A stretch of DNA of 64,000 nucleotides from a virus: IMG/VR virus record IMGVR_UViG_3300027754_000039, positions 32,001 through 96,000 of that record. The stretch is one strand, 5' to 3'. Shown here one piece after another: positions 890 to 33,169 of the stretch (the first letter of the stretch is position 1; every line of letters starts with the position of its first letter). Below the pieces are notes generated by a model, which made no database searches, was not told where the DNA came from, and saw nothing but the letters and a program-made list of their open reading frames with translations. Made by a program: the position numbers and the translations under genes.

Positions 890-1177
890 TTAATTTATTT
901 GTTTAGCAATATCTTGCTTTGCTATTTTAATTATTTGATTTTTAGTTTCAATTGAAACTCTACTCCAATTTATCATATCCCATTTATCTTGCATTTCCTG
1001 CTTAGGAGTAGGTTCAGCTTCATCAATCCAAACTTTAGTTTTAAGGTCTTCTAATCGTTTCTCTAAATGAGGTACTTTTGATTTATAAAAAGCTAAATGA
1101 TTTAAATGTTCCATGTTTAACCCTGATTCTTTTTTACGGCTAAACAAATTTTTAATAAAATTTACAATTTGTTTCAT
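890..1177 (-). CDS. hypothetical protein
   Basis: Tightly packed ORF in the operon. Confidence 0.6.
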   Translation of the reverse strand: MKQIVNFIKNLFSRKKESGLNMEHLNHLAFYKSKVPHLEKRLEDLKTKVWIDEAEPTPKQEMQDKWDMINWSRVSIETKNQIIKIAKQDIAKQIN

Positions 1178-2106
1178 TAGTATAATTCGTTTATAATTTT
1201 AATAAACATTGCCATTACATTGATCTCTTTATCAACGGCAAATGAATCTTGATATTGAGCTTCTGCTATGATAAGAATTACTCCAGCTATATGACCAACA
1301 GCAAATGTATCTACATTGTCATACAGATGCCTGTATAATGCAGTGTAGTCTTTTACTTGAGAATCAGCTAGCAACTGGCGAATTGAAGTAAACAACTGTT
1401 TCTTGTCTGGTTTAGAGACTAGCAATTCGATAATCTTGTCTGCATAATTAGCTTCAATTAAAGATTGTTTATCTATTTGTAATTCACCTTTTACTACTTG
1501 CCTCTGACAGGAATTAAGTATCCGTCTTATGTCTGGATATCCTGCATTAATTATTGAAACCAGGTCTTCAGGTTTCGCCGTAACCCCTTCTGTTTGAAGT
1601 ATTGAATTTACTCGAATAGCCACATCTTTCTTTGACGGTGGAGTGATACCAAATACTTGACATCGTGACTGAATAGGATCAATTATCTTTTCAACATAGT
1701 TGCAAGTTAAAATAAACCTAGTAGTCTTTGAAAACGTTTCCATCAAATTTCGAAGAGCTGCTTGAGCGTTTGGGGTCAAGTAGTCGGCTTCATCTAGGAT
1801 GATTAATTTCCATTGACGAAATCCGATTGTGCTAGCAAAGCTTTTAATTTTCTCTCTAACTGTATCTACATTGTTTTCGTCTGATGCATTAATATACATC
1901 AAATCACAATCTATATTTTTTGCTATTAGTTTAGCTAGAGTAGTCTTACCAGTTCCTGCAGTACCATAAAATAACAAATGCGGAACATCACCACTCTCTA
2001 TATAGATTTTTACTTTTTCTATGATAGAAGTATTTCCTACATATCCATCTAATTGCTCCGGTCGATATTTTTCAGTCCAAAGAGTATGTTCGTTATTTCC
2101 GTACAT
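1177..2106 (-). CDS. gp44: clamp loader large subunit (gp44/RFC-like AAA+ ATPase)
   Basis: WTEKYRP N-terminus, Walker A GTAGTGKT, Walker B ILDEAD, SRC motif. Confidence 0.95.
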   Translation of the reverse strand: MYGNNEHTLWTEKYRPEQLDGYVGNTSIIEKVKIYIESGDVPHLLFYGTAGTGKTTLAKLIAKNIDCDLMYINASDENNVDTVREKIKSFASTIGFRQWKLIILDEADYLTPNAQAALRNLMETFSKTTRFILTCNYVEKIIDPIQSRCQVFGITPPSKKDVAIRVNSILQTEGVTAKPEDLVSIINAGYPDIRRILNSCQRQVVKGELQIDKQSLIEANYADKIIELLVSKPDKKQLFTSIRQLLADSQVKDYTALYRHLYDNVDTFAVGHIAGVILIIAEAQYQDSFAVDKEINVMAMFIKIINELY

Positions 2107-2281: not shown

Positions 2282-2995
2282 TTAAGCAATAGTCAATTTA
2301 ACTAAATAATATGATGAAGAGTATTCAGCATTTTCAAAAGTTACTTTTGCTAATCCTTTAGAAGACACTTCTAACATTCCTGTCGCGTCTGCATTTGCAT
2401 TTAAAATTTCTTTAAACAATTTAGCAGAGAAACATACAGTATCCATTTGCTTAGACTCTTTAGGAGTTGCCTTAAATACAATACGATTGGTATTCACACT
2501 TGAGTGATTGATAATAATTTTAGTTTCTTCCCCATCACATTGAACACCAAAGTTATCAGACTCAGGTAACGCATTAGCTGCTTTCTTAAAGTTATTTGCA
2601 AAGTCTTTATTCAATTCAATCTTAACATCAAAGTCAGGAAGTGATTTTAAATTAGGAACTTGACGAATAACAGATAAGTCTGCTAACATGTAAGTTACAT
2701 TAGTACTTGAATCTTTGAAATTGATAGAATACATTTTCTTTTCTACCTCTCCAAAAGTTACATCTATTTTCTCATCAACTGCTGATAACATCTTAACCAA
2801 TTGAGAAGTTGCATAAACTCCTAACTCAGCATCTGGTGCATCAAAGTTATTAAGAACTACTTCACCAATTACATTCTGATCAGTGCTAATGAATTTAGTA
2901 GTCAGCTTTTTGTCTTCTACTACCAACTTTGCCGAGTCTGTATTACCTGCTAAGAAGTAACGATTCACAAAGCCTATAAATTTTGATTTTTCCAT
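2282..2995 (-). CDS. gp45: DNA sliding clamp (gp45-like)
   Basis: 237 aa two-domain beta-rich protein next to the clamp loader; ends YSSSYYLV as in clamps. Confidence 0.75.
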   Translation of the reverse strand: MEKSKFIGFVNRYFLAGNTDSAKLVVEDKKLTTKFISTDQNVIGEVVLNNFDAPDAELGVYATSQLVKMLSAVDEKIDVTFGEVEKKMYSINFKDSSTNVTYMLADLSVIRQVPNLKSLPDFDVKIELNKDFANNFKKAANALPESDNFGVQCDGEETKIIINHSSVNTNRIVFKATPKESKQMDTVCFSAKLFKEILNANADATGMLEVSSKGLAKVTFENAEYSSSYYLVKLTIA

Positions 2996-4672: not shown

Positions 4673-6022
4673 TTATATATTTTCTAATTCACCCCACCCA
4701 CCTAACGCATCTTCAATACGCTGTTGCGGAACTTCTTCTGTTTCTTTTGTTTCATCCACTACTTCTTTCTTTTCTCTTTTCTTAACTACTTTTGGTTCCA
4801 CAAATGAATTAAAGTCGGCAAAGTTAAAAAATTCTTCATGAACTTCTTTTGCAATATTCATTACATTCTCTCCGCCAAATTTAACATAGAATTGTCTATA
4901 TCTTTCATACACTGCAATTGGATCAGAGGATACAAACATTTCTTCCATTGACTTTAAAATTTGTATTAAGTCATTTGGAATTAATTCTGCTAGAACTTCT
5001 AATGGACAAGTATTAACTAACTTCTCTACCTGATCTGCAGTGTATACATACATATACAAATTATGATAAGTTAATCGAGTAACTGCTTCTGTCGAATAAT
5101 TTTTTACTGTATCCCATTTCAAATACTCAACACCTGGATGATTAATTAATGACGGAACGTGTCCTGTAGTTGGATATACAATATTACTTGAATCTTTAGG
5201 AAAGTATAACATATTAAATACTTGATCTTTCCAATTAGGACTCCATACCATTTGCCCAAAGATAGGATACTGACCTGGAGATGAACTATCTGTTGATACA
5301 GTAATTCTATTATTAGTATGTATATTTAATAATTTCTGTAATTGAGATAAAATGAAAAAGTCAGATACTTTTGAAATGCCTAATAAGTGAACCCAAGTAT
5401 TATATTCTTTATCAAACTCTTTTTCTTTAATCATTAAAGCTAGAATATACATAAAGTCTACAAGACGTCTAGATGAACCTATACACCATCCACCAAACTC
5501 CATATCTCTAACAGTCTTATACCAATGAGAAAACTCTACAGGATTAGAACCTTGAACTACATTTAAAAATTTAGTCTTACCAGTTTGTTTCTTTTCAAAA
5601 TATTTAAAATTATCTAAACTGATATCTAAAGACTCTTGGAACCTTCCTTCATAAGTCACGCGTGGCGGAATATCTATATTACAAGCAATGTCTGAATTGT
5701 TTTCTAACCATTCAAAAATTCTATCACGTAATGCCATATCCCATTTCAATGCACCAGTTGCAATTTGGAATCCACCAGAGTCGCCAAATACTAAAGTATC
5801 TTGCAATCCCCAAGTTTGTCTAATGTTATCTTTCTTATAAAGATGACCTGCTGTCATCAAGAAGTATTTATATCTCCACTCCTCAGGAGTACGGTCATCC
5901 CAAAATCTATAAGGGACACCGGGTGCTACTTCCATATCTTTAGTTAGTGGAGAAGCATAAGCTCCACTCGACAAACTAGGGAAATAGCAGAGTTTTTTTG
6001 GACTATTTGATTTTAATATCAT
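4673..6022 (-). CDS. dpdA: tRNA-guanine-transglycosylase-like DNA 7-deazaguanine insertion enzyme (DpdA family)
   Basis: TGT-type motifs GDSGGFQ, NIDIPP, NVVQG, VHLLG, STDSSSP, YHNL; in a phage with folE/queD/queE. Confidence 0.85.
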   Translation of the reverse strand: MILKSNSPKKLCYFPSLSSGAYASPLTKDMEVAPGVPYRFWDDRTPEEWRYKYFLMTAGHLYKKDNIRQTWGLQDTLVFGDSGGFQIATGALKWDMALRDRIFEWLENNSDIACNIDIPPRVTYEGRFQESLDISLDNFKYFEKKQTGKTKFLNVVQGSNPVEFSHWYKTVRDMEFGGWCIGSSRRLVDFMYILALMIKEKEFDKEYNTWVHLLGISKVSDFFILSQLQKLLNIHTNNRITVSTDSSSPGQYPIFGQMVWSPNWKDQVFNMLYFPKDSSNIVYPTTGHVPSLINHPGVEYLKWDTVKNYSTEAVTRLTYHNLYMYVYTADQVEKLVNTCPLEVLAELIPNDLIQILKSMEEMFVSSDPIAVYERYRQFYVKFGGENVMNIAKEVHEEFFNFADFNSFVEPKVVKKREKKEVVDETKETEEVPQQRIEDALGGWGELENI

Positions 6023-6041
6023 AACTTTATTTATTTATACT

Positions 6042-6074
6042 TAAATATAGGAAATTCTTATGTGTCTACCAAAT
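6042..6074 (-). promoter_or_regulatory. Bacteroidota-type promoter for dpdA
   Basis: Minus strand ATTTG-N20-TATATTTA. Confidence 0.65.
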
Positions 6075-6805
6075 TAATTTGAAAACTTTTTACCTTTATT
6101 CCAAGGAATTCTAGGCACATAAGTTCCATTTTTAATTTTTTCTTCTTTATTTCGTTTTCTAGAAGCCATACATTTTTTAACAATTTCAAGGTCTTTCATA
6201 GAATTTATCTTTTTAGATAAAGAATTTTTAATTTTATTTACAGTTTCCAAACTTGGCGAAATGCCTTTATTCCATGCAGTTCTTCCGGTGGGTCGACCCT
6301 TCATATTTTCATAATGTACTAATCGAGCGGGTGTCATAACTTTTTTCTTTCCTTTAGTAGCTTTAGATAGTTTAGCTTTATATTCATCACTTCTCGGATG
6401 CTTTAATCCTAAATTAATATCTCGTAATTTTTGTTTTGTATCTTCCGACATAATTCGGCCAGTCATTTGTTTAGTTAAATAAGGAATCCATTTATCTTTT
6501 GCTTCTTGATACATTCTACTCGACGGAGTGTAATTACTTAGTTTATATCTTAACGCATTTTTTAAATTACACATACGAAAAAATGCATGAGCTAATTTAT
6601 TAGAATCAATATATACTCGTATTAATAGCCAATGGCATATAAAATGCTCACGAGCTGTTAATAAAACTAAATTTTCTTTTTTATTACTGCCTCCTAAACA
6701 TTTAGGTACAATATGGTGCTTTTCATAATACACACTAGTTCCTTTAATTCGATTTTCAGTTCGAGCTTTTTCTATTATTTGATTGTATATTTTTTCGTAA
6801 TTCAT
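6074..6805 (-). CDS. free-standing HNH homing endonuclease (Mob-like) with NUMOD3-type repeats
   Basis: EKHHIVPKCLGGSN..ENLVLLTAREHFICHWLL; MSEDTKQKL, AWNKG and PWNKG motifs. Confidence 0.9.
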   Translation of the reverse strand: MNYEKIYNQIIEKARTENRIKGTSVYYEKHHIVPKCLGGSNKKENLVLLTAREHFICHWLLIRVYIDSNKLAHAFFRMCNLKNALRYKLSNYTPSSRMYQEAKDKWIPYLTKQMTGRIMSEDTKQKLRDINLGLKHPRSDEYKAKLSKATKGKKKVMTPARLVHYENMKGRPTGRTAWNKGISPSLETVNKIKNSLSKKINSMKDLEIVKKCMASRKRNKEEKIKNGTYVPRIPWNKGKKFSN

Positions 6806-6945: not shown

Positions 6946-7950
6946 TTATGAAATAGTACCAAATATTTCTTTAATAATTGGCTCTGAATCGTAAAAGGTT
7001 TCAAATAAATGTGTCTGCTGTTCTTTAATTAAAGGAATATAAAAATCATAATTTTCAATTAGATGTTTTATCTTACCTGTTAAGTCTGGAGCGAATTTAC
7101 TGTAATTGAAAATATTTGCCGTCCATTCAGCTGGATATCTAAAATCTAAAGGAACTAAATCTTTTAACCCTTCAATATCAGGTACCAAAGGTATAGTGCC
7201 TAGCAAAAAACATTCATAAATTTCTTTTCCAATATTTGGAGAGTCGTAAGGAAGAAATGCAACTTTAGCTTTAGCAATTTGATTTAATAATTGATCTCGA
7301 GTTAATGGAAGACGTTCTTGAGCAAATATAACTTTTATATCTTTGTACACTCGTATAAAGTCGTATACAATCTGTTCCTGTAGCGTTGAATACTTATTCC
7401 ATGGAAAGATAACCATGCTTTGTTTAAAGTAACTATCCTTATATAAAGACATATCCAATATTAAATACTCTAATGGAAAAGGCATTACATTTAATCTTTC
7501 AGGAAATACAAATTTAGAAACGTATATACGAAACTGCTCTTTATGAAATTCAGATATAAAAAATGATTTATCTAAACAACGAAAAGATGCCCTTTCATGT
7601 ACCTTTCTCCAATTACGATCATTTAATGGACGATACTCTGAATCTAAATTTAAGTAACACCCACGTGACCAAAAGCCAATCATCTTAACCGGCACTTGAT
7701 AATTTTCTGACCAGTGTCTAACATACACAGTCATTGACGACCAAGCATTAGGAAACACAAATAAATCGTCAGGAGTAATTACTCCATTCTGAAAATGTTG
7801 CTTAATTAATGAAGGGTCCATAATTTCTACAACTTCAAACTCATTAGGCTTTGTAGACTCTACATACCCATGAAGAATAGAAGCTAAATGACTTTCCCAA
7901 GAATTCTCGTCAGTAATAAGTGGGTCTATTACTACATAAACTCTTTTCAT
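6946..7950 (-). CDS. GT-B glycosyltransferase-like protein (GT1), paralogue of 11597-12619, catalytic motif degenerate
   Basis: Aligns by eye with 11597-12619; AKAKVAFLP then PNIGKEIYE in place of E-x7-E. Confidence 0.7.
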   Translation of the reverse strand: MKRVYVVIDPLITDENSWESHLASILHGYVESTKPNEFEVVEIMDPSLIKQHFQNGVITPDDLFVFPNAWSSMTVYVRHWSENYQVPVKMIGFWSRGCYLNLDSEYRPLNDRNWRKVHERASFRCLDKSFFISEFHKEQFRIYVSKFVFPERLNVMPFPLEYLILDMSLYKDSYFKQSMVIFPWNKYSTLQEQIVYDFIRVYKDIKVIFAQERLPLTRDQLLNQIAKAKVAFLPYDSPNIGKEIYECFLLGTIPLVPDIEGLKDLVPLDFRYPAEWTANIFNYSKFAPDLTGKIKHLIENYDFYIPLIKEQQTHLFETFYDSEPIIKEIFGTIS

Positions 7951-8303
7951 AGCTTTTCTACTCTAGCTCCATTTTCCATATCTTCCCAACATTCAACCCA
8001 ATCACATTCAAATCTTTCTAGCAATTCTCTAGATAACATTTCACAAGACTTAGGCCCAAACTCTAAAGTTCTAGATTGATTATCTGAATATTGATTATGT
8101 AAATAATTTAATACATCCCGTTTAAACATAATAAACTCTACATCTCGATCATCGTGATTAACCATTTTAGCTAAAGTAAAATGAAACATATGTCTATGTC
8201 TATCTGCTAAAAATGCAACTTCTGGAAACAACTCTGCTGCTTTTGGGAAGTTGTGCATTCCGTCTACTGCTAGCTTAACTAATACTACCGTCTTTGTTAT
8301 CAT
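7947..8303 (-). CDS. dpdL: T-fold QueD-like protein, putative 7-carboxy-7-deazaguanine decarboxylase (DpdL)
   Basis: LADRHRHMF matches the LxxxHRHxF signature recalled for DpdL; also DRDVEFI, SCEM and EDMENGA. Confidence 0.8.
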   Translation of the reverse strand: MITKTVVLVKLAVDGMHNFPKAAELFPEVAFLADRHRHMFHFTLAKMVNHDDRDVEFIMFKRDVLNYLHNQYSDNQSRTLEFGPKSCEMLSRELLERFECDWVECWEDMENGARVEKL

Positions 8304-9027: not shown

Positions 9028-11595
9028 TTAACTAAATGAAAAGAAATCTGCCATATTATCATTCTTAGGTATGCCTCCCCAATTCAAAGCTTGATAAAAA
9101 TCACCTAACTTATTTTCCAAAGAAGCAATAAATATCCTTTCATAATCAATATATTGAGTTATAAATTTAATAATTTCTTTTGGATCTTCAAAGCCCTTTA
9201 CAGCTAAAGTATCTAATCCTAATGGATTTTGTTTAAGATAAGTCCATTTAATTTTTTCTCCATCCAATATAGGTTGTGAAGCCGTAATATTATAATATAT
9301 CATTAAGTCATTATAATTCAATGCCGACTTAGCGTGTATTGGAGTTCCTTTAACTCTGTTACCAAATACTTGACCTTTAATCTTTTTAGTTTTGTATTTG
9401 GATAATTCTTTAATACCTGTCGGAAACATAATGTCAAACATAGGTTTAGTTTTCATATCTTCTCGAAATGCTAACACCTTATCATCAATTTTTTTCTTTT
9501 CAGAAATATTTAAAATGTCAATTAAGATACCTGACATAAACTCTCTAAATGCTTTTGGAAAATTACTTCTTACAACATCCATACCTTTAACATCTAACTT
9601 CCACTCTTTAGCTCCGTTAGTCATTTGTGATATTAATACTCCTTTCTCAGAAATAATTTTTTGTGCATAACGTTTTTTTGCAATCCACAAACCAGATTCA
9701 GATACATACTCTTGTTTAATATTTAAAAAGTGTTTATCTGAATTTAAAAAGTGCTTACAAAATTCATCCCAAGATGCATTAATATAATTTTCAACTACTT
9801 GAGAAGTTTTATAAGTAACGTCAATCTTCTCTTGCTTGGTCATCTCTTTACCCATCTTAGTTTCCATTAAGTCAATAATTGGCTTAGCTGAAAAGTAATT
9901 GGAATCTGTATCTACATAAATTACATACTCTTTATCAACTCCTGTCTGTTTAGTAAACCATTCATTGCCTTTCATCATGGCGTGACGAATAACTTGCTGA
10001 CCTGTTAATGTAATTGACTCTGCATTATCTAAATCATGAAATCTAAATCCAGGAGCTCCTAAAGCTCCATATAAAGAGTTATTTACAATCTTCATAGTGT
10101 GCTGTCTGGAGTCAAAGAATTTAGACATATCAGCATTACCCTCCTTACCATACTTCTTTGCTAAGCCACGATATTCTTCACGCTCGCCCATCCAAGTTTC
10201 TAATATAGAAGGAATCAATCCACTTTTGGAATAATCATATACAACACCAATAGAAGATACTGTAAATTTATTATCTACTAACCATTGTCTAAATTCTACA
10301 ATTGGAATCATTACGTGCTTAGCACCTGATTTAATTTTAGCATTGGCATTGGAAAAAGAGTCAGTCCAAAAATCATTTTTAACTGCATCCCAATTTTCTA
10401 CTCTACCTACTTTGGTCTCTGGAGATATATTTAACGTTCTAATAATAGAAGGATATAGTGAAGCCATATCCTCATCAAACACCCATTCATATAAACCTGG
10501 TATTGGATCTTTTACATAAGCTCCAGCAAAATCATTAGAATGTGGATCTGTCGATTCTGCAGAGTGATCTCTTAACTTTCTATTAGGAGCAATAATGCCT
10601 AAACGTTTCATATACGTTACACAGGCTCCATCTAAATATCTAGTTGTAAAATAAACATCTTCATAAGGCACATGACCTTTATGACAGATACCTCGAGCCA
10701 AAGATAGGAATTTAAGTTTTTCATCTAACTCTAAAACTAATATAACGTCATTGATATTATATGCAATAAACTTTTCAGGATCTGTTTTATATAAATGATC
10801 CAAAGTTCCTTCATATTCAATTTTACCTTTACCTAATTCTTTTTTAGAAATAGAATCTAACGAATAAGACACCTCTTCAGAGTATGTAAATAATTTATAC
10901 AATGCCATGTAATCTAAACAACTAACACCCATAATTCTATAACGATTACGATGTTGAAGATAAATTACTTCATTGATTGGAGATAGCGAATCGGCATATT
11001 CCTTACCTACTACCTTTGTCATACGATTATATAAATAAGGAATATCAAAGAAATCAATATTCCATCCTGTTATAATGGTCGGTCTTATTTCTTGATAGTG
11101 AGCTAGAAATCTAGAAATCAATTCGTGTTCAGTTTGAACTACTTCTAAAATTAAATTAGCATCTGTATATGGCTTTAAAGTTCTTTTAGCATCGACAATA
11201 ATAGCTACTGACTGATTGCCTACTCTATCATGAAAGGCAATTGAAGTCATTGGTTGCCAAGCATCTTCTGCTGACGAAAAGCCTCCTTCGGTATTTACTT
11301 CAATATCTATAAATAATTCTCTATGTCCTATTGAAGGCTCATCTGTTTGAAAATATAAATCAATTAAAGTTCTAGTCTCTGGATTAATATCTGATTCATA
11401 TATATGACCTTTTTGAACATCCATTTCATCCCAATCAGTTACTCTATCAACTTTCGATCCATCTAAAGCTGCATGACGACCATGAGAATTTTTCTTATAA
11501 GCATATTTTTTATATGGGAATTTAAGATGACCATTTTTGTCATCCCAGACGTGCATAATATTTTTATGCTTTTGATATGCTATATTTTGGTACAT
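9028..11595 (-). CDS. gp43: family B DNA polymerase (gp43-like), uninterrupted
   Basis: Exo motifs DIE, GWNIDFFD, YNINDV; pol motifs DMASLYPS, K..NNSLYG, YVDTDS. Confidence 0.97.
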   Translation of the reverse strand: MYQNIAYQKHKNIMHVWDDKNGHLKFPYKKYAYKKNSHGRHAALDGSKVDRVTDWDEMDVQKGHIYESDINPETRTLIDLYFQTDEPSIGHRELFIDIEVNTEGGFSSAEDAWQPMTSIAFHDRVGNQSVAIIVDAKRTLKPYTDANLILEVVQTEHELISRFLAHYQEIRPTIITGWNIDFFDIPYLYNRMTKVVGKEYADSLSPINEVIYLQHRNRYRIMGVSCLDYMALYKLFTYSEEVSYSLDSISKKELGKGKIEYEGTLDHLYKTDPEKFIAYNINDVILVLELDEKLKFLSLARGICHKGHVPYEDVYFTTRYLDGACVTYMKRLGIIAPNRKLRDHSAESTDPHSNDFAGAYVKDPIPGLYEWVFDEDMASLYPSIIRTLNISPETKVGRVENWDAVKNDFWTDSFSNANAKIKSGAKHVMIPIVEFRQWLVDNKFTVSSIGVVYDYSKSGLIPSILETWMGEREEYRGLAKKYGKEGNADMSKFFDSRQHTMKIVNNSLYGALGAPGFRFHDLDNAESITLTGQQVIRHAMMKGNEWFTKQTGVDKEYVIYVDTDSNYFSAKPIIDLMETKMGKEMTKQEKIDVTYKTSQVVENYINASWDEFCKHFLNSDKHFLNIKQEYVSESGLWIAKKRYAQKIISEKGVLISQMTNGAKEWKLDVKGMDVVRSNFPKAFREFMSGILIDILNISEKKKIDDKVLAFREDMKTKPMFDIMFPTGIKELSKYKTKKIKGQVFGNRVKGTPIHAKSALNYNDLMIYYNITASQPILDGEKIKWTYLKQNPLGLDTLAVKGFEDPKEIIKFITQYIDYERIFIASLENKLGDFYQALNWGGIPKNDNMADFFSFS

Positions 11596-11596
11596 C

Positions 11597-12619
11597 TTAT
11601 TTTTCTGATTTAATTATATCAATCATTGTTTGTGCATTGTTATTCCACTTTGCTGTCCACTCAAAAGGAACAGTTAAGTCACAACTGTCAAATAGAAAAT
11701 CAATATCTTTAACTCTGTCATATACATTGACAGACGGTACCATTTCAGGGCAACATGCTCTATTTGGAACTAATATATTACAATTAAAGAAAATAGCTTC
11801 TTGTATTGTATATCCAAAAGTTTCTTGATAACAGGTTGATAAATACCAACGAGCCTTTGCCATTAAAGTAAAATATTCTTTTTTAGTTAAGTTAAATTTA
11901 AACTCGATATTTCTAGGCAGATTAGTTCCACAATCTTTTACAGGACCTGAAGACGTAACTATTATTTTTTTATTTGTGCTATTGGCATATTGAATTAACT
12001 CGCCTAAGCCTTTTTCATTACACCACCTATGAGGCCAAATAACAAAATCTTCTTTTACAACATATCCAATCTCTTCATGAAACTCTTGCATATAATTCAA
12101 GTCCCAAATTAAACCTGTCGTATGCACTGTAGCTGTATTCAATCCAAAATATTCACATACATTATATTTGTGATCGTCGCTACCTACAAAAATGCCATCA
12201 CAAATTTGATGATATCCTAATTCAGAAGCGTCTGCCCAATGACCTAATTTTTGTACAAAGTCTGTGCTATCAGCTCTACCAGCATAATTAATTCCATATA
12301 CCTTAACATCAATATCTTGAAGCTCTGCCATGTATTTAATCATTTCAATACCTGGGAAGAATATATCTCCTATTAGAAATGCATCTCCATTATTAACTTT
12401 GCCTTCATTGAAAAGGTCTGCAATCATTTGCAACTGTGCTGCTTTGAATTTGCAAGTATTAACAATATCTAAAAATTGACCACGCTTGATTTCTTTGTCA
12501 ATTTCTACCTTCGGATACAATGAAATGTCTACTTTAGGGTAAATAGCTGCATTCATCATTTGGGTATAGCGAGCTGGTAACTCTTCTATAGGAATGTAAA
12601 TTATTTTATTTTTTGTCAT
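11597..12619 (-). CDS. GT-B (GT4-like) glycosyltransferase (GT2)
   Basis: WPHRWCNEKG and ETFGYTIQE (E-x7-E); directly upstream of the polymerase. Confidence 0.85.
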   Translation of the reverse strand: MTKNKIIYIPIEELPARYTQMMNAAIYPKVDISLYPKVEIDKEIKRGQFLDIVNTCKFKAAQLQMIADLFNEGKVNNGDAFLIGDIFFPGIEMIKYMAELQDIDVKVYGINYAGRADSTDFVQKLGHWADASELGYHQICDGIFVGSDDHKYNVCEYFGLNTATVHTTGLIWDLNYMQEFHEEIGYVVKEDFVIWPHRWCNEKGLGELIQYANSTNKKIIVTSSGPVKDCGTNLPRNIEFKFNLTKKEYFTLMAKARWYLSTCYQETFGYTIQEAIFFNCNILVPNRACCPEMVPSVNVYDRVKDIDFLFDSCDLTVPFEWTAKWNNNAQTMIDIIKSEK

Positions 12620-12650
12620 AACTTTTTATTTTAATAAAATATATGATTTT

Positions 12651-14051
12651 CTATTCAAAAAAGCTAGAGATAGTTTTGTTTTCTTTTGGTAATTCTTTTT
12701 TAATTAAATTACCATTATCATCTGGAACTCCTAAGTAAGTAAATTGCTTTTCATGAAGTATTTGATACCAAGATTGATTGGTGTATATAGCTTCTATATC
12801 TGAAGTAAGATATATTGTTCCTTTTGTATTTTCCGTTCTAAAATAATCTTCTAAAGACATCCAAAACCCTTTATGCTCTTTTAAATAAGTATAAAGACGA
12901 TTGCGTGGTTCTTGTTTTGCTTGCACTCCACCAAAAGCATCTTCAACTAAATTTAACAAAGCTGTTTCATAATCTACTTTATATTGAGTAAATTCCAACT
13001 CTACTTTAGTCTCATCTACTTTCCAGGTATTATAAGCTGACCATATTATATCCGATACTTCTTTGGAATCTGCAACTATTAAATTGCTCATGCCTTGAAA
13101 ATTATAATGCCAATCATAATTGCGTAAAACAACTGTCGGCATAAATCGAAGAGCCTCTAAAACTGCAATACCAAAGGATTCATTTTTATAAGGCATAAAT
13201 GCTACTTTGGCAGATTGAATTATTTTTGCTTTCTCTTCTCCTACAACATCACATTTGATTTCATAATTGGTATGACCTATAGCAGCAAAGTCAGCTTCAA
13301 ACTTTTTAACGTGTGCAGAACGAGTTAGCACTTTTGCTTTTAACTCAACTCCATGCTTTGCTTTTATATCGGCCAGTACCTTAATATACATACCCGGATT
13401 CTTTCTATCCTCGTGTCTTCCTATATAGAGTACCCCTTCCTTCTCAAGATTGTATACGACGTTAGAATCGGTTAATGGATAAGGCTGAATATATAAATTA
13501 GGATTGGAGTAAGGCAATTTAGATAGTAGCTTTGCTTTATTTTGTTTAGTTTGTATCAATGTTGTAATTGGAAAATACATCATTTGCTCAATTAAATTAT
13601 AATAACAATCTTTAAATACTCCAGCTCCTAATTCTGGATTTATAGATTGACATTCATGAGCGTATGAACTAACTCTCATATGTTTATAAAGCTCTAATTG
13701 ATAACATACAAAAGCAGACTCTGTGTCATTGCAAATAACTAAATCATACTTATGATTAGCTAACGCTTTTACTATTGCAGTTCGAAAATTAATTGACTTT
13801 TCAAAATTAAAGCTGTCTGCAAATTGAAATAAATTGGAATGCTTACCATAAGACAATCGCTCTTGCTTGTCTGGATAGTAAACACTAATTCCAGATTCTT
13901 TTAGAAAATTTTCTTCAGGTTCTCCGTCACATATAACATCTATAAAATGCCCATGCTCTAATAAAGTTTCTACTACCCCCTTCATGAAAATTCCGTGTCC
14001 TGAACTAGGCCTAAAATTCATTCTGTTAATGATGAATGCTACTCTTTTCAT
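12651..14051 (-). CDS. GT-B (GT4-like) glycosyltransferase (GT3) with C-terminal extension and clamp-binding-like motif
   Basis: SGHG N-terminal loop, YIGRHEDRKNP, ESFGIAVLE (E-x7-E); ends PKENKTISSFFE. Confidence 0.85.
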   Translation of the reverse strand: MKRVAFIINRMNFRPSSGHGIFMKGVVETLLEHGHFIDVICDGEPEENFLKESGISVYYPDKQERLSYGKHSNLFQFADSFNFEKSINFRTAIVKALANHKYDLVICNDTESAFVCYQLELYKHMRVSSYAHECQSINPELGAGVFKDCYYNLIEQMMYFPITTLIQTKQNKAKLLSKLPYSNPNLYIQPYPLTDSNVVYNLEKEGVLYIGRHEDRKNPGMYIKVLADIKAKHGVELKAKVLTRSAHVKKFEADFAAIGHTNYEIKCDVVGEEKAKIIQSAKVAFMPYKNESFGIAVLEALRFMPTVVLRNYDWHYNFQGMSNLIVADSKEVSDIIWSAYNTWKVDETKVELEFTQYKVDYETALLNLVEDAFGGVQAKQEPRNRLYTYLKEHKGFWMSLEDYFRTENTKGTIYLTSDIEAIYTNQSWYQILHEKQFTYLGVPDDNGNLIKKELPKENKTISSFFE

Positions 14052-14394: not shown

Positions 14395-14766
14395 TTATTT
14401 GCCGGCACGGCTATCATTTACGCTACCAGAGGTTGCAAGTACTTTTAAAGCTACAATGTCAGGGACTTGAAATCCTAACAATCGCAAATCAGCTAAATCC
14501 ATACGAGTTAATCCTTTGGCCGTAATTTTTTTTCTTCTATTTGATTCGTGTTTAAATTTTAATAACTCAGCACACTTTTCATATTCTTCTAAATTGCTAT
14601 AATATATTATCAAGCAATCATAGATAAATTGTCTATCTGTATGTTTAGGTACATCATACTTACATACTAACCTAAATACATTATCAATCGTTTGCTTCGC
14701 TGACGGAAGTTCTTCTGCCATCACTAAAAACAAATTTAATCGATCTTGACGTTCGTCCGGAGTCAT
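14395..14766 (-). CDS. hypothetical protein with UVR-like EEYEKCAEL motif
   Basis: ORF coupled to folE stop. Confidence 0.6.
   Translation of the reverse strand: MTPDERQDRLNLFLVMAEELPSAKQTIDNVFRLVCKYDVPKHTDRQFIYDCLIIYYSNLEEYEKCAELLKFKHESNRRKKITAKGLTRMDLADLRLLGFQVPDIVALKVLATSGSVNDSRAGK
14401..14416. repeat. right arm of the GC-rich inverted repeat pair
   Basis: GCCGGCACGGCTATCA. Confidence 0.85.
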
Positions 14767-15398
14767 TAATCTAACTTATCTACGAAACGATAAAACTCAT
14801 TTCTAGCTGCTGGGTCAATTAAAAATGCTCCTGACATCTTTGAAGTCATCATTGTCGAGTCGTGACGTACACCTCTCACACAAGCACACATATGATTCGC
14901 TGCTACCATTACTGCTACACCTTTATTACCTTCACACACTGTATTGATATACTCGTGAATTTGCATAGTTAAATTTTCTTGAACCTGAGGTCTGCGAGCA
15001 AAATACTCTACAATACGATTTAGTTTAGACAATCCAATAACCTTACCATCTTCAGACGGAATATAAGCTACGTGTGCATATCCAATAAAAGGTAAATGAT
15101 GATGAGAGCAAAAAGACTTTACATCAATATTGCCTTGAAATACAATTCCATCATACTTATCTAAATTGTCAAATGCTGTAATTTTCGGAGCATCTTCATA
15201 ACAACCTTGAGCTAAATCATTAACAAAGGCTTTTGCAACTCGCATTGGAGTGTCTGAAGAGTTAGGATCGTTTTCCCAATCAATACCTAACGCAGTCATG
15301 TAAGCTCCATAATGTGAAGCTGCAGCTATAATCATAGCCTGCTTCTCTTCTTTAGTTCTAGGAATAGAAGAGTTAGCATATTTTAATAATTCTTTCAT
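14766..15398 (-). CDS. folE: GTP cyclohydrolase I
   Basis: [38 protein letters not shown]. Confidence 0.96.
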
Positions 15399-15958: not shown

Positions 15959-16723
15959 TTATACTCCTCGTTTATCGTTATAAGCTACTATGTGAGCTCT
16001 TCCTGTGAAATTATAGCCTCTTTTAATACACTCTTCCATTACATAAGGATAGTTAGGTTGTAATTTATCTAGCGTATCTCCTGCTGGCATAACCCATACT
16101 TTATTTTTAGGTATGTCATGAGTTGCAATAAACTCTTCTATTTCATTCCACACTTCAGGATCGTTTCTATCTACAACTGGTTTGAAATGATAATCTAAAT
16201 GATACTCCATCATCTTTTTCATAACATCATGATTCATTCTAAATTTGTTATGTTGTGTGATAAGCTTTTCATTTACATCTACTCCTAATGGAGTTTCAGT
16301 TCCTAATTTTGGAATTGAGTTTTTAAACTTAGGTGATAGTGATATTAAATCTATTTTATAATTAGTTTCAATAAAATGGCTTCCTTCAGTTTCAATAGTA
16401 ACATACATTCCTCTCATACGTTTAGCTATATTAACTAATTCATCAACTAACTCAGGATGCATAGTTGGAGAACCACCTGATATCATTAAATGATTGATCT
16501 GAGGATTGGTTTCAAATAGTTCTTGAATAGCATTAAGAGTCCAAGTACCTTTCTCTGGATGAATACTTGTATACCAAGAATCACACCATCCTCCTTCTCC
16601 AAAGTAACATCTGTGAGTACAGCCTGTTGTTCTTACTAGAAAATGAGGACGACCTGCTCGTGAACCTTCAGTTTGAACGCAAGTATATGCTTCAATGATA
16701 GGTTGTATTTTATTATAGTCCAT
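15959..16723 (-). CDS. queE: 7-carboxy-7-deazaguanine synthase (radical SAM)
   Basis: VQTEGSRAG.P..LVRTTGC, CTHRC-x7-CDS, ISGGSP, TIETEG, LSPK. Confidence 0.92.
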   Translation of the reverse strand: MDYNKIQPIIEAYTCVQTEGSRAGRPHFLVRTTGCTHRCYFGEGGWCDSWYTSIHPEKGTWTLNAIQELFETNPQINHLMISGGSPTMHPELVDELVNIAKRMRGMYVTIETEGSHFIETNYKIDLISLSPKFKNSIPKLGTETPLGVDVNEKLITQHNKFRMNHDVMKKMMEYHLDYHFKPVVDRNDPEVWNEIEEFIATHDIPKNKVWVMPAGDTLDKLQPNYPYVMEECIKRGYNFTGRAHIVAYNDKRGV

Positions 16724-17114: not shown

Positions 17115-17591
17115 TTATTCTTCATAGATGCTAGAGTTTTTATCATTTTCAAAACATTCTACTTTAATCACTTTACATCTACCAGCGTCTGTCTTAGATA
17201 ACACTTCATTAAAGTGATCATAAACTAATTTAGCATTGCTTTCAGCTCCCATTTTATCTAGTAAATGAACTTTAGCTAAACCCATTTGCCCTAATTGTTC
17301 AAATACATCAGCATAAGGATCGTCTTTTTGAATTAGTAAAGTATGATCCCACATATGATCCATCCATGACTTAAGACCATTGCCTACTGGTTTGTCTTTA
17401 AACCCTGAATAGTCTACAATCCAATTCATATCGTCTAACTGTTTATTAACGTCAGGTTCATTGGAGGCGAACCATACTTTAAATTTTAACGCATATCCAT
17501 GTAATAATTGACAGTGTGAATGTTGAGCTTTCCACTGTCTAATTGCCACGCTATAGTTATCAAAAGTTTTAGTACTTAAATACTGTGCCAT
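17115..17591 (-). CDS. queD: 6-carboxy-5,6,7,8-tetrahydropterin synthase
   Basis: HCQLLHGY, WIVDY, WDHTLL, AESNAK, ECFEN..NSSIY. Confidence 0.92.
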   Translation of the reverse strand: MAQYLSTKTFDNYSVAIRQWKAQHSHCQLLHGYALKFKVWFASNEPDVNKQLDDMNWIVDYSGFKDKPVGNGLKSWMDHMWDHTLLIQKDDPYADVFEQLGQMGLAKVHLLDKMGAESNAKLVYDHFNEVLSKTDAGRCKVIKVECFENDKNSSIYEE

Positions 17592-17608: not shown

Positions 17609-18349
17609 TTAATTATTTTTTAATATAGACAATTCTTTGTAAAATACCAAATCTTTTTTAATTAAATTTTCAATTGAAATAAAATCAAATCCAGCATCTT
17701 TAAAAGTCTTTCCTATATATTGTCGAATATGTTGATAATATAAAGTATCATTTATCATTGCCTGAAAATGTGCTTTTCTTATTACCTTATGATTATGTTT
17801 ACATTTAGTTACTAAACTAGTATAGTCTATACCTATATAGTCGCCCATTATGTCAGAAGCAGAAAAATTACCAAATGGGGTTAAATATATTCCTTTACAT
17901 GCTATTCCAACATGATAGTTACTCCTAGCAAAATCAATTTGACTTAAAATTTCGCATTGGTTAGTATATAAATTTTTACATGCTATCATATTTTTATATG
18001 AAGACTTATCAGATTTTTTTCTTTTCTTTAATTTATCAATTAATTGAAGCCTATCAGATCCTACTATCCCTGCAAAGGTATTGCCCCCTTCCCCGCCTTC
18101 GGCTATATTATAAAACTCAGCCGAGTTTACTGCGTCGTATAATTTAATATATCGTTTTTCTGCTGAGCGAACTTCATCTTTACTATTAAAGTATTCAAGT
18201 ACTACTCTTGTGAAATTTTCACATCCATGTTTTTTAATAGCTCGCCGTAAAAGTTTACCTGAACCTAAATACTTATCCGTGTCTTTACCTTCATACTTAC
18301 CAATATACTTTTTATTATTAATAAGACAGGTTGTTATATATACAAACAT
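17609..18349 (-). CDS. free-standing GIY-YIG (Seg-like) homing endonuclease
   Basis: FVYITTCLINNKKYIGK..YLGSG.LL..AIKKHG.ENF, FYNIAEGG. Confidence 0.9.
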   Translation of the reverse strand: MFVYITTCLINNKKYIGKYEGKDTDKYLGSGKLLRRAIKKHGCENFTRVVLEYFNSKDEVRSAEKRYIKLYDAVNSAEFYNIAEGGEGGNTFAGIVGSDRLQLIDKLKKRKKSDKSSYKNMIACKNLYTNQCEILSQIDFARSNYHVGIACKGIYLTPFGNFSASDIMGDYIGIDYTSLVTKCKHNHKVIRKAHFQAMINDTLYYQHIRQYIGKTFKDAGFDFISIENLIKKDLVFYKELSILKNN

Positions 18350-19067: not shown

Positions 19068-19493
19068 TTAAAAATCCATATCCATATTATCTGCTTCAAT
19101 CTTCTTTACTTTCTTTTTAGCTTCTTCCATGCTATTTGGAGAAATTGCAAAAGATCCTTCTTCAGTCATGTCACCAAAAACTTTTCCTGCAGCAAGAGCT
19201 TTAGTTATTTGTTTCCAAAATTCATCAAAGAATTCGGCTTCAAAATAGAATTTTTTGTTTTTACTAGCCGTAGCAAGCATTTTGTCAAAAGCAGCATCTT
19301 CGCCGGCATCGTAAAGCTTTTTCAAGCTCATTAGTGTTTTTCCTGTTATAGCTACTTCTGCTTTAAGTGTTCCACTCTGGTGTGGGTAATATTCAAACCA
19401 ATAGTATTTTTTAGCTGGATCTAATGTATTTGCTTCTTTTAAAACTTTACGAATTTCTTCGCGAATTAATTGTTTAAATTCTTGTTTGTTCAT
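19068..19493 (-). CDS. hypothetical protein, putative head-internal protein
   Basis: Leader MNKQEFKQLIREEIRKVLKE-A shared with other virion-region ORFs. Confidence 0.65.
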   Translation of the reverse strand: MNKQEFKQLIREEIRKVLKEANTLDPAKKYYWFEYYPHQSGTLKAEVAITGKTLMSLKKLYDAGEDAAFDKMLATASKNKKFYFEAEFFDEFWKQITKALAAGKVFGDMTEEGSFAISPNSMEEAKKKVKKIEADNMDMDF

Positions 19494-27916: not shown

Positions 27917-28705
27917 TTACTTACTATTAAATAAATTATCGAATGCCGATGCTACGTCATCAACTTTAGCTACTGGTGCTTCCTCTTCAATAGAAGATTT
28001 ATTAGCATTTGAAGCTTTAGCTGGAGCAGCTGCCTTTTCTTCAGACTCTGCATTTTCAGGATTCAACCAGTTATGCAACATCTTGGTCATTTCCTCATAT
28101 GAGTACTCTTTAAAGATGTCAGTTACTTTAGGTTGATTACCAAGCTTTTCTAAAATAGCTTTGTTGTCAGTTACTGGAGTTTGATTTGGTTTAACACGAA
28201 TTGACGTCTCTGGATAAGATTTACCGGTTTGATCAGCTGCTTTGAATTCAACTGCGATGTCACGTCCTGCTACTGGATCTGAAATATCACCATAATCAGG
28301 GTCTGCAATAAATCCTAATAGTTCTTGATATACTGATTTACCAAAGCCCCAAAATTTAACGCCTTCTGCTTCCTTACCACGAACGATAACGGGTACATAA
28401 CAACGCATTGTTGGTTCTAATTTTTTACCTGCTTTCCAATCATCAGAGTTACCTGTTGATTTTAATTTTTCTGCAAATTCCACGATAGGGTCGGGACGAC
28501 CAAATGACATTGGAGATAAAACAGATTTACCACCGAAGTTATAATGGAAATAAAGTTCTAAGAATGGATTTTCTCTGTTGTGTTGATAAGGTACTATCCT
28601 TACTACTTGAGTGCCTGGTTCAGGCTTCCATAAATTGTTTTGTTTTTGTGTTACATTTTGTAACGAGTTAAGCTTCTGCTTAATTGCATCGAGATTGATT
28701 GCCAT
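27917..28705 (-). CDS. gp32: single-stranded DNA-binding protein (gp32-like)
   Basis: LWKP..G..VVRIVP, PF.E.YFHY, VIVRG.E.EGVK.W.FG, DP..GRD, acidic FDNLF tail. Confidence 0.85.
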   Translation of the reverse strand: MAINLDAIKQKLNSLQNVTQKQNNLWKPEPGTQVVRIVPYQHNRENPFLELYFHYNFGGKSVLSPMSFGRPDPIVEFAEKLKSTGNSDDWKAGKKLEPTMRCYVPVIVRGKEAEGVKFWGFGKSVYQELLGFIADPDYGDISDPVAGRDIAVEFKAADQTGKSYPETSIRVKPNQTPVTDNKAILEKLGNQPKVTDIFKEYSYEEMTKMLHNWLNPENAESEEKAAAPAKASNANKSSIEEEAPVAKVDDVASAFDNLFNSK

Positions 28706-31301: not shown

Positions 31302-33169
31302 TATACAAATCTACAAACTGTGTTTAATGTTGTTGTCCAATCTCCGCTAGCAATAGTATGTTCTACTGTAGTAACTGTAAATGCAATATCGTCTCTTTTA
31401 TATTGAGCTGGTAAATAATTAGTTGTAATTGCATTTCCAAAAGTAAATCCTTCTATTCCGTCCAGAGTACAAGAAAAATCTAATGGAAATAATGGCTTAG
31501 CAGTTAGGCCTAATTTACCAATTAATTCTGCTTTGATAGCAGCTTCTAAATCTGTAACGTTTTCAGGAGTAAGCCCGTCACTCGCTACTTTCTTTTTAAC
31601 AGCTACTAAAGCTTCGGGTATAGGTTCCTGTGCTTTATCTTCTTTACCCGTCAATAACCCTTGGCCCGGGCTTAATGTACTTTGAGCTTTAATAAATGCT
31701 TGCGCTGCCATTTCTTGAGGTATCTTTGCTGTCAATGACATAGTGCGAACTATACCATCTTGATCAACTGCTGATATAACATACGGTTTAATTTTTTCGT
31801 CTGAATATTCAGAATCGACTATTACCAATTCAGTTTCTTTTTCGGGATTGATAACTAACGTTAGTTTAAATAACTGAGCGCTATTTTTATAAATCATCGT
31901 AAATATATCATTTAAAAACTTAGCTATTGACATATCTGGAGACCGTTCTCCCTTCTCATTAACAGTTCCTAAATTTCTAAATACATCATTAATATATCGA
32001 ACATTAATCATAATTTTACTAGCATCTCCTGTTCCGTTTTCACCTTTAAATGCAGCATCAGTATCTCCAAATGTAAATACTTTACTTCCTGGAAAATTGC
32101 CGGCGCCGTCGCCATAGTCAGCGAACCCCGGAAATATACATTCTCCCGGATTTGCTGATACAAAAGCAACTAATGTAGGTATCGAAACTTTAGTCCAATC
32201 TTTATTACATTGTATTACAATTTCTTTAAATTTATAATCTTTTGCTATCTTTGCTTTAGCTCCTGATGCATTTTTATATAATTTATTAATAATAAATACT
32301 AACTTTTCCAATGTAATGTAATATTGAGCGGTTGCTTCTTGTGCTGGCTTATCCGCAGAAGCTTCTTGATTTTCTTCTTCTTGCACTGCTGGCATATGAG
32401 CCCAATCGGTTGGAAATTTAATTGCGCCAATTCCATACGTCTCATTAACTGAATCTACTACTGGTTCTGGGGTTGATGCTAATTGCACAAACCCATTAAC
32501 ATTTTGACATATAGTTAATGCTGGAAATATTTCTTCGTCTGCTCCCTTAATTGTAATATCGCCTGCACTGTCGGCCGCTTTAGCACTACCGCCTAACGGA
32601 TTTAATCCTTTTCCCATAGCTTGGCAACTGCAATCAAATCCTCCATTTTCATTAACGGTATAATTAAAATTATATATAGTTCCTGTAAAATTGCCTGGAG
32701 GGCCAGACGCTGCTGACGGTATTGACCATCCATAATATAACGTTACTTCATTTCCTAGAGTTAAAAATGGTATGTATGTATTTAATTGTGCTATGGAATA
32801 TACCGTAAATGTTAAATCTGCTTTTTTAATAGTACCAAAATCTCCATCGCTTGAAATATGTACTGTATTGATGTGTGGCTTAGGTATATATCTGCCGCTG
32901 TCTACTGAAGTAACTGTTCCTGTTCCTTGATATAAACCACTTGATCCTTTTTGTATATGACCAGCTTTATTTTTTTTAGAAAATGATAATCCACCACCTT
33001 GAGGCGGAGATAATGATATTCCTTCACATTTAGCAGTAGCTACTGCCATTTTTTTCAGCAACCAATTATGTGCCGATTGATCACGAACTTCGGCATTGTA
33101 ATATGCTTTACGTGCATTTAAGGCACTTTGAACGTTACCCGGTGTTGGTGTGAAAAATACTGTTGCCAT
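31301..33169 (-). CDS. probable baseplate hub protein
   Basis: L.YGWS, G...NFNY....GGFDC pattern; C-terminal FPLDFS.TLDGIEG..FGN; position after the LysM gene. Confidence 0.55.
   Translation of the reverse strand: MATVFFTPTPGNVQSALNARKAYYNAEVRDQSAHNWLLKKMAVATAKCEGISLSPPQGGGLSFSKKNKAGHIQKGSSGLYQGTGTVTSVDSGRYIPKPHINTVHISSDGDFGTIKKADLTFTVYSIAQLNTYIPFLTLGNEVTLYYGWSIPSAASGPPGNFTGTIYNFNYTVNENGGFDCSCQAMGKGLNPLGGSAKAADSAGDITIKGADEEIFPALTICQNVNGFVQLASTPEPVVDSVNETYGIGAIKFPTDWAHMPAVQEEENQEASADKPAQEATAQYYITLEKLVFIINKLYKNASGAKAKIAKDYKFKEIVIQCNKDWTKVSIPTLVAFVSANPGECIFPGFADYGDGAGNFPGSKVFTFGDTDAAFKGENGTGDASKIMINVRYINDVFRNLGTVNEKGERSPDMSIAKFLNDIFTMIYKNSAQLFKLTLVINPEKETELVIVDSEYSDEKIKPYVISAVDQDGIVRTMSLTAKIPQEMAAQAFIKAQSTLSPGQGLLTGKEDKAQEPIPEALVAVKKKVASDGLTPENVTDLEAAIKAELIGKLGLTAKPLFPLDFSCTLDGIEGFTFGNAITTNYLPAQYKRDDIAFTVTTVEHTIASGDWTTTLNTVCRFV

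Follow-up and report, generated by a model that had tools for sequence, protein, structure and literature searches.

Polymerase-like C-terminal tails suggest docking on the sliding clamp in a family of phage glycosyltransferases

Polymerases, ligase and the late-transcription factors of phage T4 are known users of clamp tool-belts. Clients of the eukaryotic and archaeal clamp PCNA, such as DNMT1, carry the PIP box (Q-x-x-hydrophobic-x-x-aromatic-aromatic), and the bacterial beta-clamp-binding pentapeptide reads QL[SD]LF. The closest described systems are those of T4 and RB69. The C-terminal undecapeptide of RB69 gp43 has been crystallised on gp45, the tails of T4 gp43, gp55 and gp33 are interchangeable clamp-binding epitopes, and the gp55 epitope is carried on a divergent 17-residue linker (PMC2988020). 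In T4, gp43 ends ...KASLDFLFG and gp55 ends ...SPSLDFLYEAND. Here we describe a tail resembling these on GT3, a glycosyltransferase (GT) encoded in a 64,000-nucleotide stretch of virus DNA (IMG/VR record IMGVR_UViG_3300027754_000039, positions 32,001 to 96,000). We call this whole stretch the window and give positions within it unless stated otherwise. The window is part of a complete virus record of 181,588 bp with 32% GC, and nearly all its genes lie on the minus strand. We propose that the terminal peptide of GT3 is probably a clamp-docking tail, one that would tether a DNA-modifying glycosyltransferase to a gp45-like clamp. The features that bear directly on this proposal are listed here.

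12651-14051, minus strand: GT3 coding sequence, 466 amino acids plus stop; Pfam PF00534 at 36.4 bits (cut-off 26.4)
12942-14051, minus strand: GT-B catalytic part of GT4 type, residues 1 to about 370, with glutamates E291 and E299, whose spacing we take to be that of an EX7E motif
12705-12911, minus strand: winged-helix-like C-terminal domain, residues 381-449, starting with a conserved EPRNR; topology H-E-H-H-E-E
12672-12704, minus strand: variable disordered linker, residues 450-460, pLDDT about 50
12654-12671, minus strand: C-terminal peptide I-S-S-F-F-E, residues 461-466, the proposed clamp-docking epitope
9028-11595, minus strand: PolB, a T4-type family B DNA polymerase (phrog_262, E 5e-180; RB69 and T4 gp43 structures, E 1e-70)
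9031-9054, minus strand: PolB tail M-A-D-F-F-S-F-S, residues 848-855, aligning to the last residues of RB69 gp43
2282-2995, minus strand: gp45-like sliding clamp, 237 amino acids, the proposed docking partner (phrog_223, processivity factor, E 4e-13), adjoining the clamp loader
1177-2106, minus strand: gp44-like clamp loader large subunit (phrog_168, E 1e-84)

An earlier, sequence-only reading of this DNA had pointed to similar tails on GT3 and PolB, and retranslation of both open reading frames (ORFs) found the tails as stated and the coordinates correct. The GT3 translation (12651-14051, minus strand) ends in ...LPKENKTISSFFE followed by the stop, its last residues being TISSFFE, and positions 12651-12690 hold the stop codon and the final 12 codons. 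PolB, encoded two genes downstream of GT3, has 855 residues (9028-11595, minus strand) and ends in ...GIPKNDNMADFFSFS before its stop, with the last residues NMADFFSFS. A hydrophobic-x-x-F-F core is common to ISSFFE of GT3 and MADFFSF of PolB. HMMER aligned PolB with RB69 gp43 through to both C-termini (...ipkndnmadffsf with ...yekkaslfdmfdf, in which SLFDMFDF ends at residue 903). The view of the PolB tail as a clamp-binding-like peptide is upheld by this end-to-end match to a gp45-binding tail, and this alignment makes it homologous in position to the clamp-binding peptide of RB69 gp43. The PolB C-terminus reads [MLT][AS][DNE]FF[SE]F in 10 related loci.

The tail is also kept in the homologues of GT3, a check that the sequence-only reading had itself set. 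A search of 5.8 billion proteins returned 92 relatives, all metagenomic, and [FLI]-S-S-F-F-[EGQD] terminates nearly every full-length one. Across an alignment of 65 homologues, F464 is conserved in 100%, F465 in 98%, S462 in 82% and S463 in 71%, and position 461 is F, L or I in 54 (83%). Exactly one residue follows the F-F or F-Y pair in 61 of the 65, as in GT3 itself, where a single residue separates FF from the stop codon; none follows it in one. The linker at residues 450-460 has top-residue frequencies of 0.15-0.5, varies in length and falls in gapped columns, and AlphaFold2 gives a pLDDT of about 50 across residues 451-466. Because the SSFF codons differ synonymously between loci (TTT/TTC; AGC/AGT/TCT/TCA), selection on the tail acts on the protein, and its conservation is not explained by an overlapping DNA element. 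The pattern first proposed for both tails, N-x-x-hydrophobic-x-x-F-F, stands in its hydrophobic position and its aromatic pair and fails in its asparagine: position -6 is Ser in 22 homologues, Asn in only 16 and Thr in 10, and we dropped the shared asparagine as a motif element. One subclade (P0006-P0013, ...TEKESSFFE) lacks the hydrophobic residue before SSFF. Two distant homologues, P0093 and P0094, end in FFEFQ and FFEFE, the FFxF form of PolB.

Compared with the T4 and RB69 epitopes, the GT3 tail is likewise a short hydrophobic-acidic aromatic peptide at the extreme C-terminus behind a divergent, flexible linker, and near-identical tails occur on several proteins of one phage. The form differs (SLDFL[FY] in T4 against [FLI]SSFF[EGQD] here), and so do the clients, which are a polymerase and transcription factors in T4 and RB69, whereas here they would be DNA-modification enzymes, a GT4 glycosyltransferase and a DpdA-like transglycosylase. 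The likeness to the PIP box lies in the hydrophobic residue three positions before the aromatic pair (positions 4 and 7-8) and in the logic of a DNA-modifying enzyme tethered to the clamp behind the fork. Unlike the PIP box, the GT3 tail has no conserved Gln or Asn at position 1, and its proposed partner is a gp45-type clamp rather than PCNA; by its residues it is not a canonical PIP box, and any likeness is convergent. The bacterial pentapeptide form is seen in one branch of the wider family (QLRLF, QLKLF, QLSLF), while GT3 itself has the FF form.

That wider family was gathered by a profile search of 1.84 billion cluster representatives, which returned 516 relatives; for 135 of these the E value was 1e-30 or lower. 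We scored a protein as tailed when it ends in [LIMFW][FW] plus at most 3 residues, and took as background the 179 other ORFs of at least 100 amino acids in the 181.6-kb genome. Such a hydrophobic-aromatic C-terminus was found in 64 of 89 full-length family representatives and in 14 of the 179 background ORFs (Fisher p = 2e-27). An alignment of 37 representatives (23-37% identity) has just six invariant columns, namely G18, H132, K217, E291, E299 and F465. The tails fall into three classes: a T4 class (SLEDLF, TLDDFF, SLEGLFE, NLESLFA, SLADLFG), the FF class, and a third, again at the extreme C-terminus, whose form is identical to the bacterial beta-clamp pentapeptide (QLSLF, QLRLF, QLKLF, xLTLF). 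The third class includes tandem paralogues ending in QLRLF and QLKLF at 8629-11377 of L037 (contig ERZ27257191 k141_729087). This pair is clustered with QueD, QueE, FolE, a QueC-like gene and a second radical SAM gene; a 367-amino-acid neighbour gene was not identifiable as a beta clamp.

Homologues found in other contexts have different ends. The GT homologue of Xanthomonas phage X1 ends ...ESKVRRV and that of Erwinia phage SNUABM_1 ends ...KTKGKKK, both outside any 7-deazaguanine cluster, and the X1 homologue is tail-less although X1 PolB ends in SLESLFG. A distant branch ending ...QWSQAL occurs in a siphovirus-like context without 7-deazaguanine cluster genes. No cultured phage matched the region in megablast, and tblastn found a sole full-length cultured relative, in the Synechococcus cyanophage BUCT-ZZ01.

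A second enzyme of the same genome carries the core of the PolB tail.

4673-6022, minus strand: DpdA-like DNA transglycosylase candidate, 449 amino acids, with a DSGGFQ motif and a weak match to phrog_10773
4820-4843, minus strand: its internal V-H-E-E-F-F-N-F, residues 394-401, with the same FFxF core

The DpdA-like label of this candidate is drawn from the conserved DSGGFQ motif and from Atlas scores (TGT 0.95, DpdA PF23859 0.90); its homologue in L027 matches phrog_10773 at E 7e-94. The FFxF core is followed by a 48-residue charged tail, Lys-rich at its start, and such a tail is usual in the clade. Ten clade members keep the motif as V-x-x-[EN]-F-F-[DN]-[FYT], and the L009 protein terminates at it. 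When the tails are set side by side genome by genome, the GT tail matches that of PolB or DpdA from the same genome in six of the seven lineages that offer a pair to compare.

L009 (this clade): GT ITSFFE; DpdA-like ASEFFDFS (terminal); PolB LADFFSF
BUCT-ZZ01 (cultured Synechococcus cyanophage): GT SLEDFFND; DpdA-like SLDSFFD; PolB TLDDFFS
G001 (162-kb IMG/VR genome): GT SLEDLF; PolB TLEDLFS
L027: GT SLEGLFE; DpdA-like TLEGLFD (phrog_10773); PolB not found
L026: GT SVLTLF; DpdA ELTLFDL (phrog_887, E 4e-27); PolB not found
L042: GT SLEDWF; DpdA-like TLEHMF; PolB not found
L037: GT QLRLF and QLKLF (two tandem paralogues); DpdA none found; PolB not found

PolB and the GT of BUCT-ZZ01 are each 33% identical to those of the window. 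A search of the records behind L027 and L035 for PolB found none.

The tail motif, its conservation, its occurrence across the family, the synteny and the match between tails of GT, PolB and DpdA within a genome are direct observations. From them we infer binding to the clamp, which is likely, DNA as the substrate, which is plausible, and the chemistry. Because the PolB tail is positionally homologous to a gp45-binding tail, the hub shared by PolB, the DpdA-like enzyme and GT3 would be the clamp. In this proposal, [FLI]-S-S-F-F-[EGQD] would be the clade's version of the T4-type clamp-binding epitope, and the GT3 peptide would most likely dock at the site of the clamp at 2282-2995 that takes the PolB tail (...MADFFSF). 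The clamp is a trimer, so that the polymerase and modifying enzymes could occupy one ring in tool-belt fashion. Tethered in this way, GT3 would stay with freshly copied DNA and act there alongside the DpdA-like transglycosylase and the FolE-QueD-QueE pathway. Its likely role would be the glycosylation of a modified base, which is probably derived from 7-deazaguanine.

Several points weigh against this proposal. GT3 lacks the final aromatic of the PolB tail (FFE against FFSF). The clamp identity of 2282-2995 depends solely on synteny, on the PHROG match and on a neighbour found by language model: the clamp's Atlas neighbour cluster, a third of whose members carry gp45-slide_C, scores 0.95, while the clamp profile gave no matches to PDB sequences and hhalign against T4 gp45 returned a probability of 2.6%. 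The covariation of tails involves about six lineages, a match of the hydrophobic-F dipeptide alone has a p of about 0.02, and the L042 pair (EDWF against EHMF) agrees in motif class only. A hydroxymethylase or known route to a glycosyl acceptor base was not identified in the genome. Finally, just one precedent has been published for gp45 as the partner of a phage DNA glycosyltransferase, and it was not reproduced (PMC13216743).

That precedent is the T4 alpha-glucosyltransferase, which shares with our proposal the idea of a phage DNA glycosyltransferase working on the clamp during replication, and which the sequence-only reading had taken as established. Pull-downs in vitro or from infected cells did not reproduce its interaction with gp45 (PMC13216743; bioRxiv 10.64898/2025.12.06.692756); the enzymes used in those pull-downs were C-terminally His-tagged (PMC13216743). 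A tag in that place would cover a terminal epitope and may have a bearing on the negative outcome. The T4 enzyme is also tail-less, its C-terminus (...FKEQFDIITK) holding no clamp-type motif, and it belongs to PF11440, whereas GT3 belongs to PF00534 (GT4). We found no papers in the searchable literature that link DpdA or GTs of the GT3 family to clamps or describe clamp-type tails on them.

The hub that the shared tail contacts could also be another replisome component, such as the gp32-like single-stranded DNA-binding protein (SSB), the helicase or the polymerase itself. The C-terminal aromatic tails of T7 gp2.5 and gp4 contact polymerase, and the DnaB-like helicase of L037 ends ...EDEDDF, indicating that these phages also make other contacts through tails. 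In the phage of the window, the gp32-like SSB (27917-28705, minus strand; phrog_1192, E 1e-18) has its own hydrophobic-acidic tail, AFDNLFNSK, at the end of ...DDVASAFDNLFNSK. Against these stand the alignment of the PolB tail with the gp45-binding tail of RB69, the QLxLF form of one branch, which is specifically a clamp motif, and the expectation that a polymerase would not dock on itself. We regard a hub other than the clamp as improbable.

What GT3 would do on the clamp depends on its catalytic body, whose AlphaFold2 model, built on 65 homologues, has a pLDDT of 90.7. Its nearest Foldseek neighbours are the GT4 retaining enzymes MshA, BshA, PimA, WaaG and TarM (E about 1e-13). The Pfam scan of GT3 matched PF00534 (Glycos_transf_1), PF13692 and PF13439 only, and the profiles of the T4 alpha- and beta-glucosyltransferases, PF11440 and PF09198, gave no match in it. 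E291 and E299 are invariant both among the 65 homologues and among the 37 distant representatives. By sequence and model, GT3 is a GT4-type retaining (EX7E) GT-B glycosyltransferase. Residues 381-449, modelled separately, reach a pLDDT of 68, and both VIA and Foldseek place winged-helix domains, and no other fold, at the top of their matches (Z 5-6.3 or E about 0.1, not significant alone), so that a winged-helix-like fold is a reasonable call from the model. The sequence-only reading had suggested that the segment of about 90 residues before the tail may bind DNA, and this idea found no support: the putative recognition helix 3 (SDIEAIYTN) is acidic with no basic residues, and the basic residues of the domain are limited to its EPRNR start and a few in the wing. 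DNA binding by this domain is not supported, the fold matches being middling and the helix acidic.

Docking on the clamp is compatible with an acceptor other than DNA, which could be a fork protein or else an unbound intermediate, pterin or 7-deazapurine, from the neighbouring FolE and QueD enzymes. GT4 enzymes act mostly on small molecules, lipids and proteins, and the structural neighbours of GT3 include a tetrahydrobiopterin glucosyltransferase (9v0l), although this ranks only 39th in a list of generic GT4 folds. The genes for FolE and a PTPS/QueD homologue are close by, and the acidic helix described above fits such an acceptor too. A small-molecule enzyme would, however, have no evident need of a clamp tether, and the DNA-acting DpdA has the same tail in the same genomes. 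In our estimation, a non-DNA acceptor is an unlikely end for a clamp-borne GT3. A use of the tail unrelated to docking (a degron, self-association or membrane contact), with the likeness to PolB a coincidence, is more improbable still: the motif is just five or six residues, FF dipeptides are common in a 32% GC genome and two structural proteins have FF near their ends, but such a use sits poorly with the family-wide enrichment (p = 2e-27), the terminal Phe kept at 23-37% identity, and a tail that matches PolB and DpdA genome by genome and is absent from out-of-context homologues.

DNA as the acceptor, the reading we prefer, fits the placement of GT3 beside DpdA and 7-deazaguanine genes. A GT3-family gene lies among FolE, QueD, QueE and DpdA or DpdA-like genes in every inspected lineage that has those genes.

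14766-15398, minus strand: FolE, GTP cyclohydrolase I (phrog_2197, E 2e-62)
15959-16723, minus strand: QueE-like radical SAM enzyme (phrog_2076, E 4e-51)
17115-17591, minus strand: QueD-like 6-carboxytetrahydropterin synthase (phrog_2389, E 1e-32)

The grouping of FolE, QueD, QueE and a TGT-like DpdA candidate is shared with described phage DpdA/7-deazaguanine systems; this locus differs in its three interleaved GT-B genes, and QueC and TGT Pfam models found no matches in the genome. The genome also encodes a nucleotide-sugar epimerase. Its only thymidylate-synthase-family gene (L014, G000:C1:145168-146397, minus strand, outside the window) encodes a 416-amino-acid protein with large insertions, compared with about 264 amino acids in E. 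coli ThyA. It keeps the dUMP-specific Asn (PFNIASY) and scores as ThyA, and on these grounds we rejected a dCMP hydroxymethylase as the source of the sugar acceptor. In the 7-deazaguanine cluster of L042, an inositol-1-phosphate synthase gene (L042:7816-9021) is flanked by the DpdA-like gene and QueC and lies next to the GT, a possible sign that the sugar or cyclitol donor is an unusual one.

Taken at its widest, GT3 and its relatives might be DNA glycosyltransferases tethered to the clamp, a large family with hardly any cultured members, working with clamp-tethered DpdA at the fork and building co-replicatively an undescribed glycosylated 7-deazaguanine (or related) DNA base. We put this forward tentatively, as a possibility that is on balance doubtful. 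Polymerase-like tails on a whole GT family and on neighbouring DpdA enzymes would physically couple DNA hypermodification to replication, and such coupling, if true, would leave host restriction no unprotected window. The tails also suggest a sequence rule for phage genomes, in which a C-terminus that copies the polymerase tail would mark a GT as DNA-acting rather than cell-surface. The cyanophage BUCT-ZZ01, cultured on Synechococcus elongatus PCC 7942, offers a system for seeking a possibly new sugar-bearing 7-deazapurine in DNA.

Other proteins with related ends were also seen. GT1 (6946-7950, minus strand) and its nine homologues in related loci all carry [IF][IL]-x-x-[IL]-F-[GDA] at the C-terminus, with 0-5 residues after it (...IIKEIFGTIS and ...IIEQIFGNSN are examples), resembling T4 SLDFLFG; GT1 could be a third clamp client, or its tail could merely be the C-terminal helix of the GT-B fold. 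An HD-type phosphohydrolase of 246 amino acids (L015, G000:C1:132401-133141, minus strand, outside the window) ends ...LKTAFDKIFG, near SLDFLFG of T4 gp43. A 119-amino-acid phrog_17812 protein (L027:11356-11715) ends ...VVNDLFG in the L027 lineage only, and its homologue at window positions 7947-8303 ends ...ARVEKL. A query of the genome with T4 gp55 found no homologue. The 141-amino-acid protein at 19068-19493, which ends ...DNMDMDF, was rejected as a clamp client; its tail is not conserved in relatives, and its N-terminus is capsid-leader-like.

The gene between GT3 and PolB is a second GT-B gene without the tail motif.

11597-12619, minus strand: GT2, with a homologue in the BUCT-ZZ01 cluster

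An A/T-rich motif is conserved 4-6 nucleotides after the GT3 stop in 11 of 12 related loci (about 12633-12646 in the window, minus strand). It reads [CTA][TA]TATATT, or [CT]TTATATATT in most loci, and closely precedes the start of GT2, for which it may be the promoter. Homing-endonuclease-like genes (phrog_655 and phrog_314) lie at 6074-6805 and 17609-18349 on the minus strand, inside the modification and replication gene cluster.

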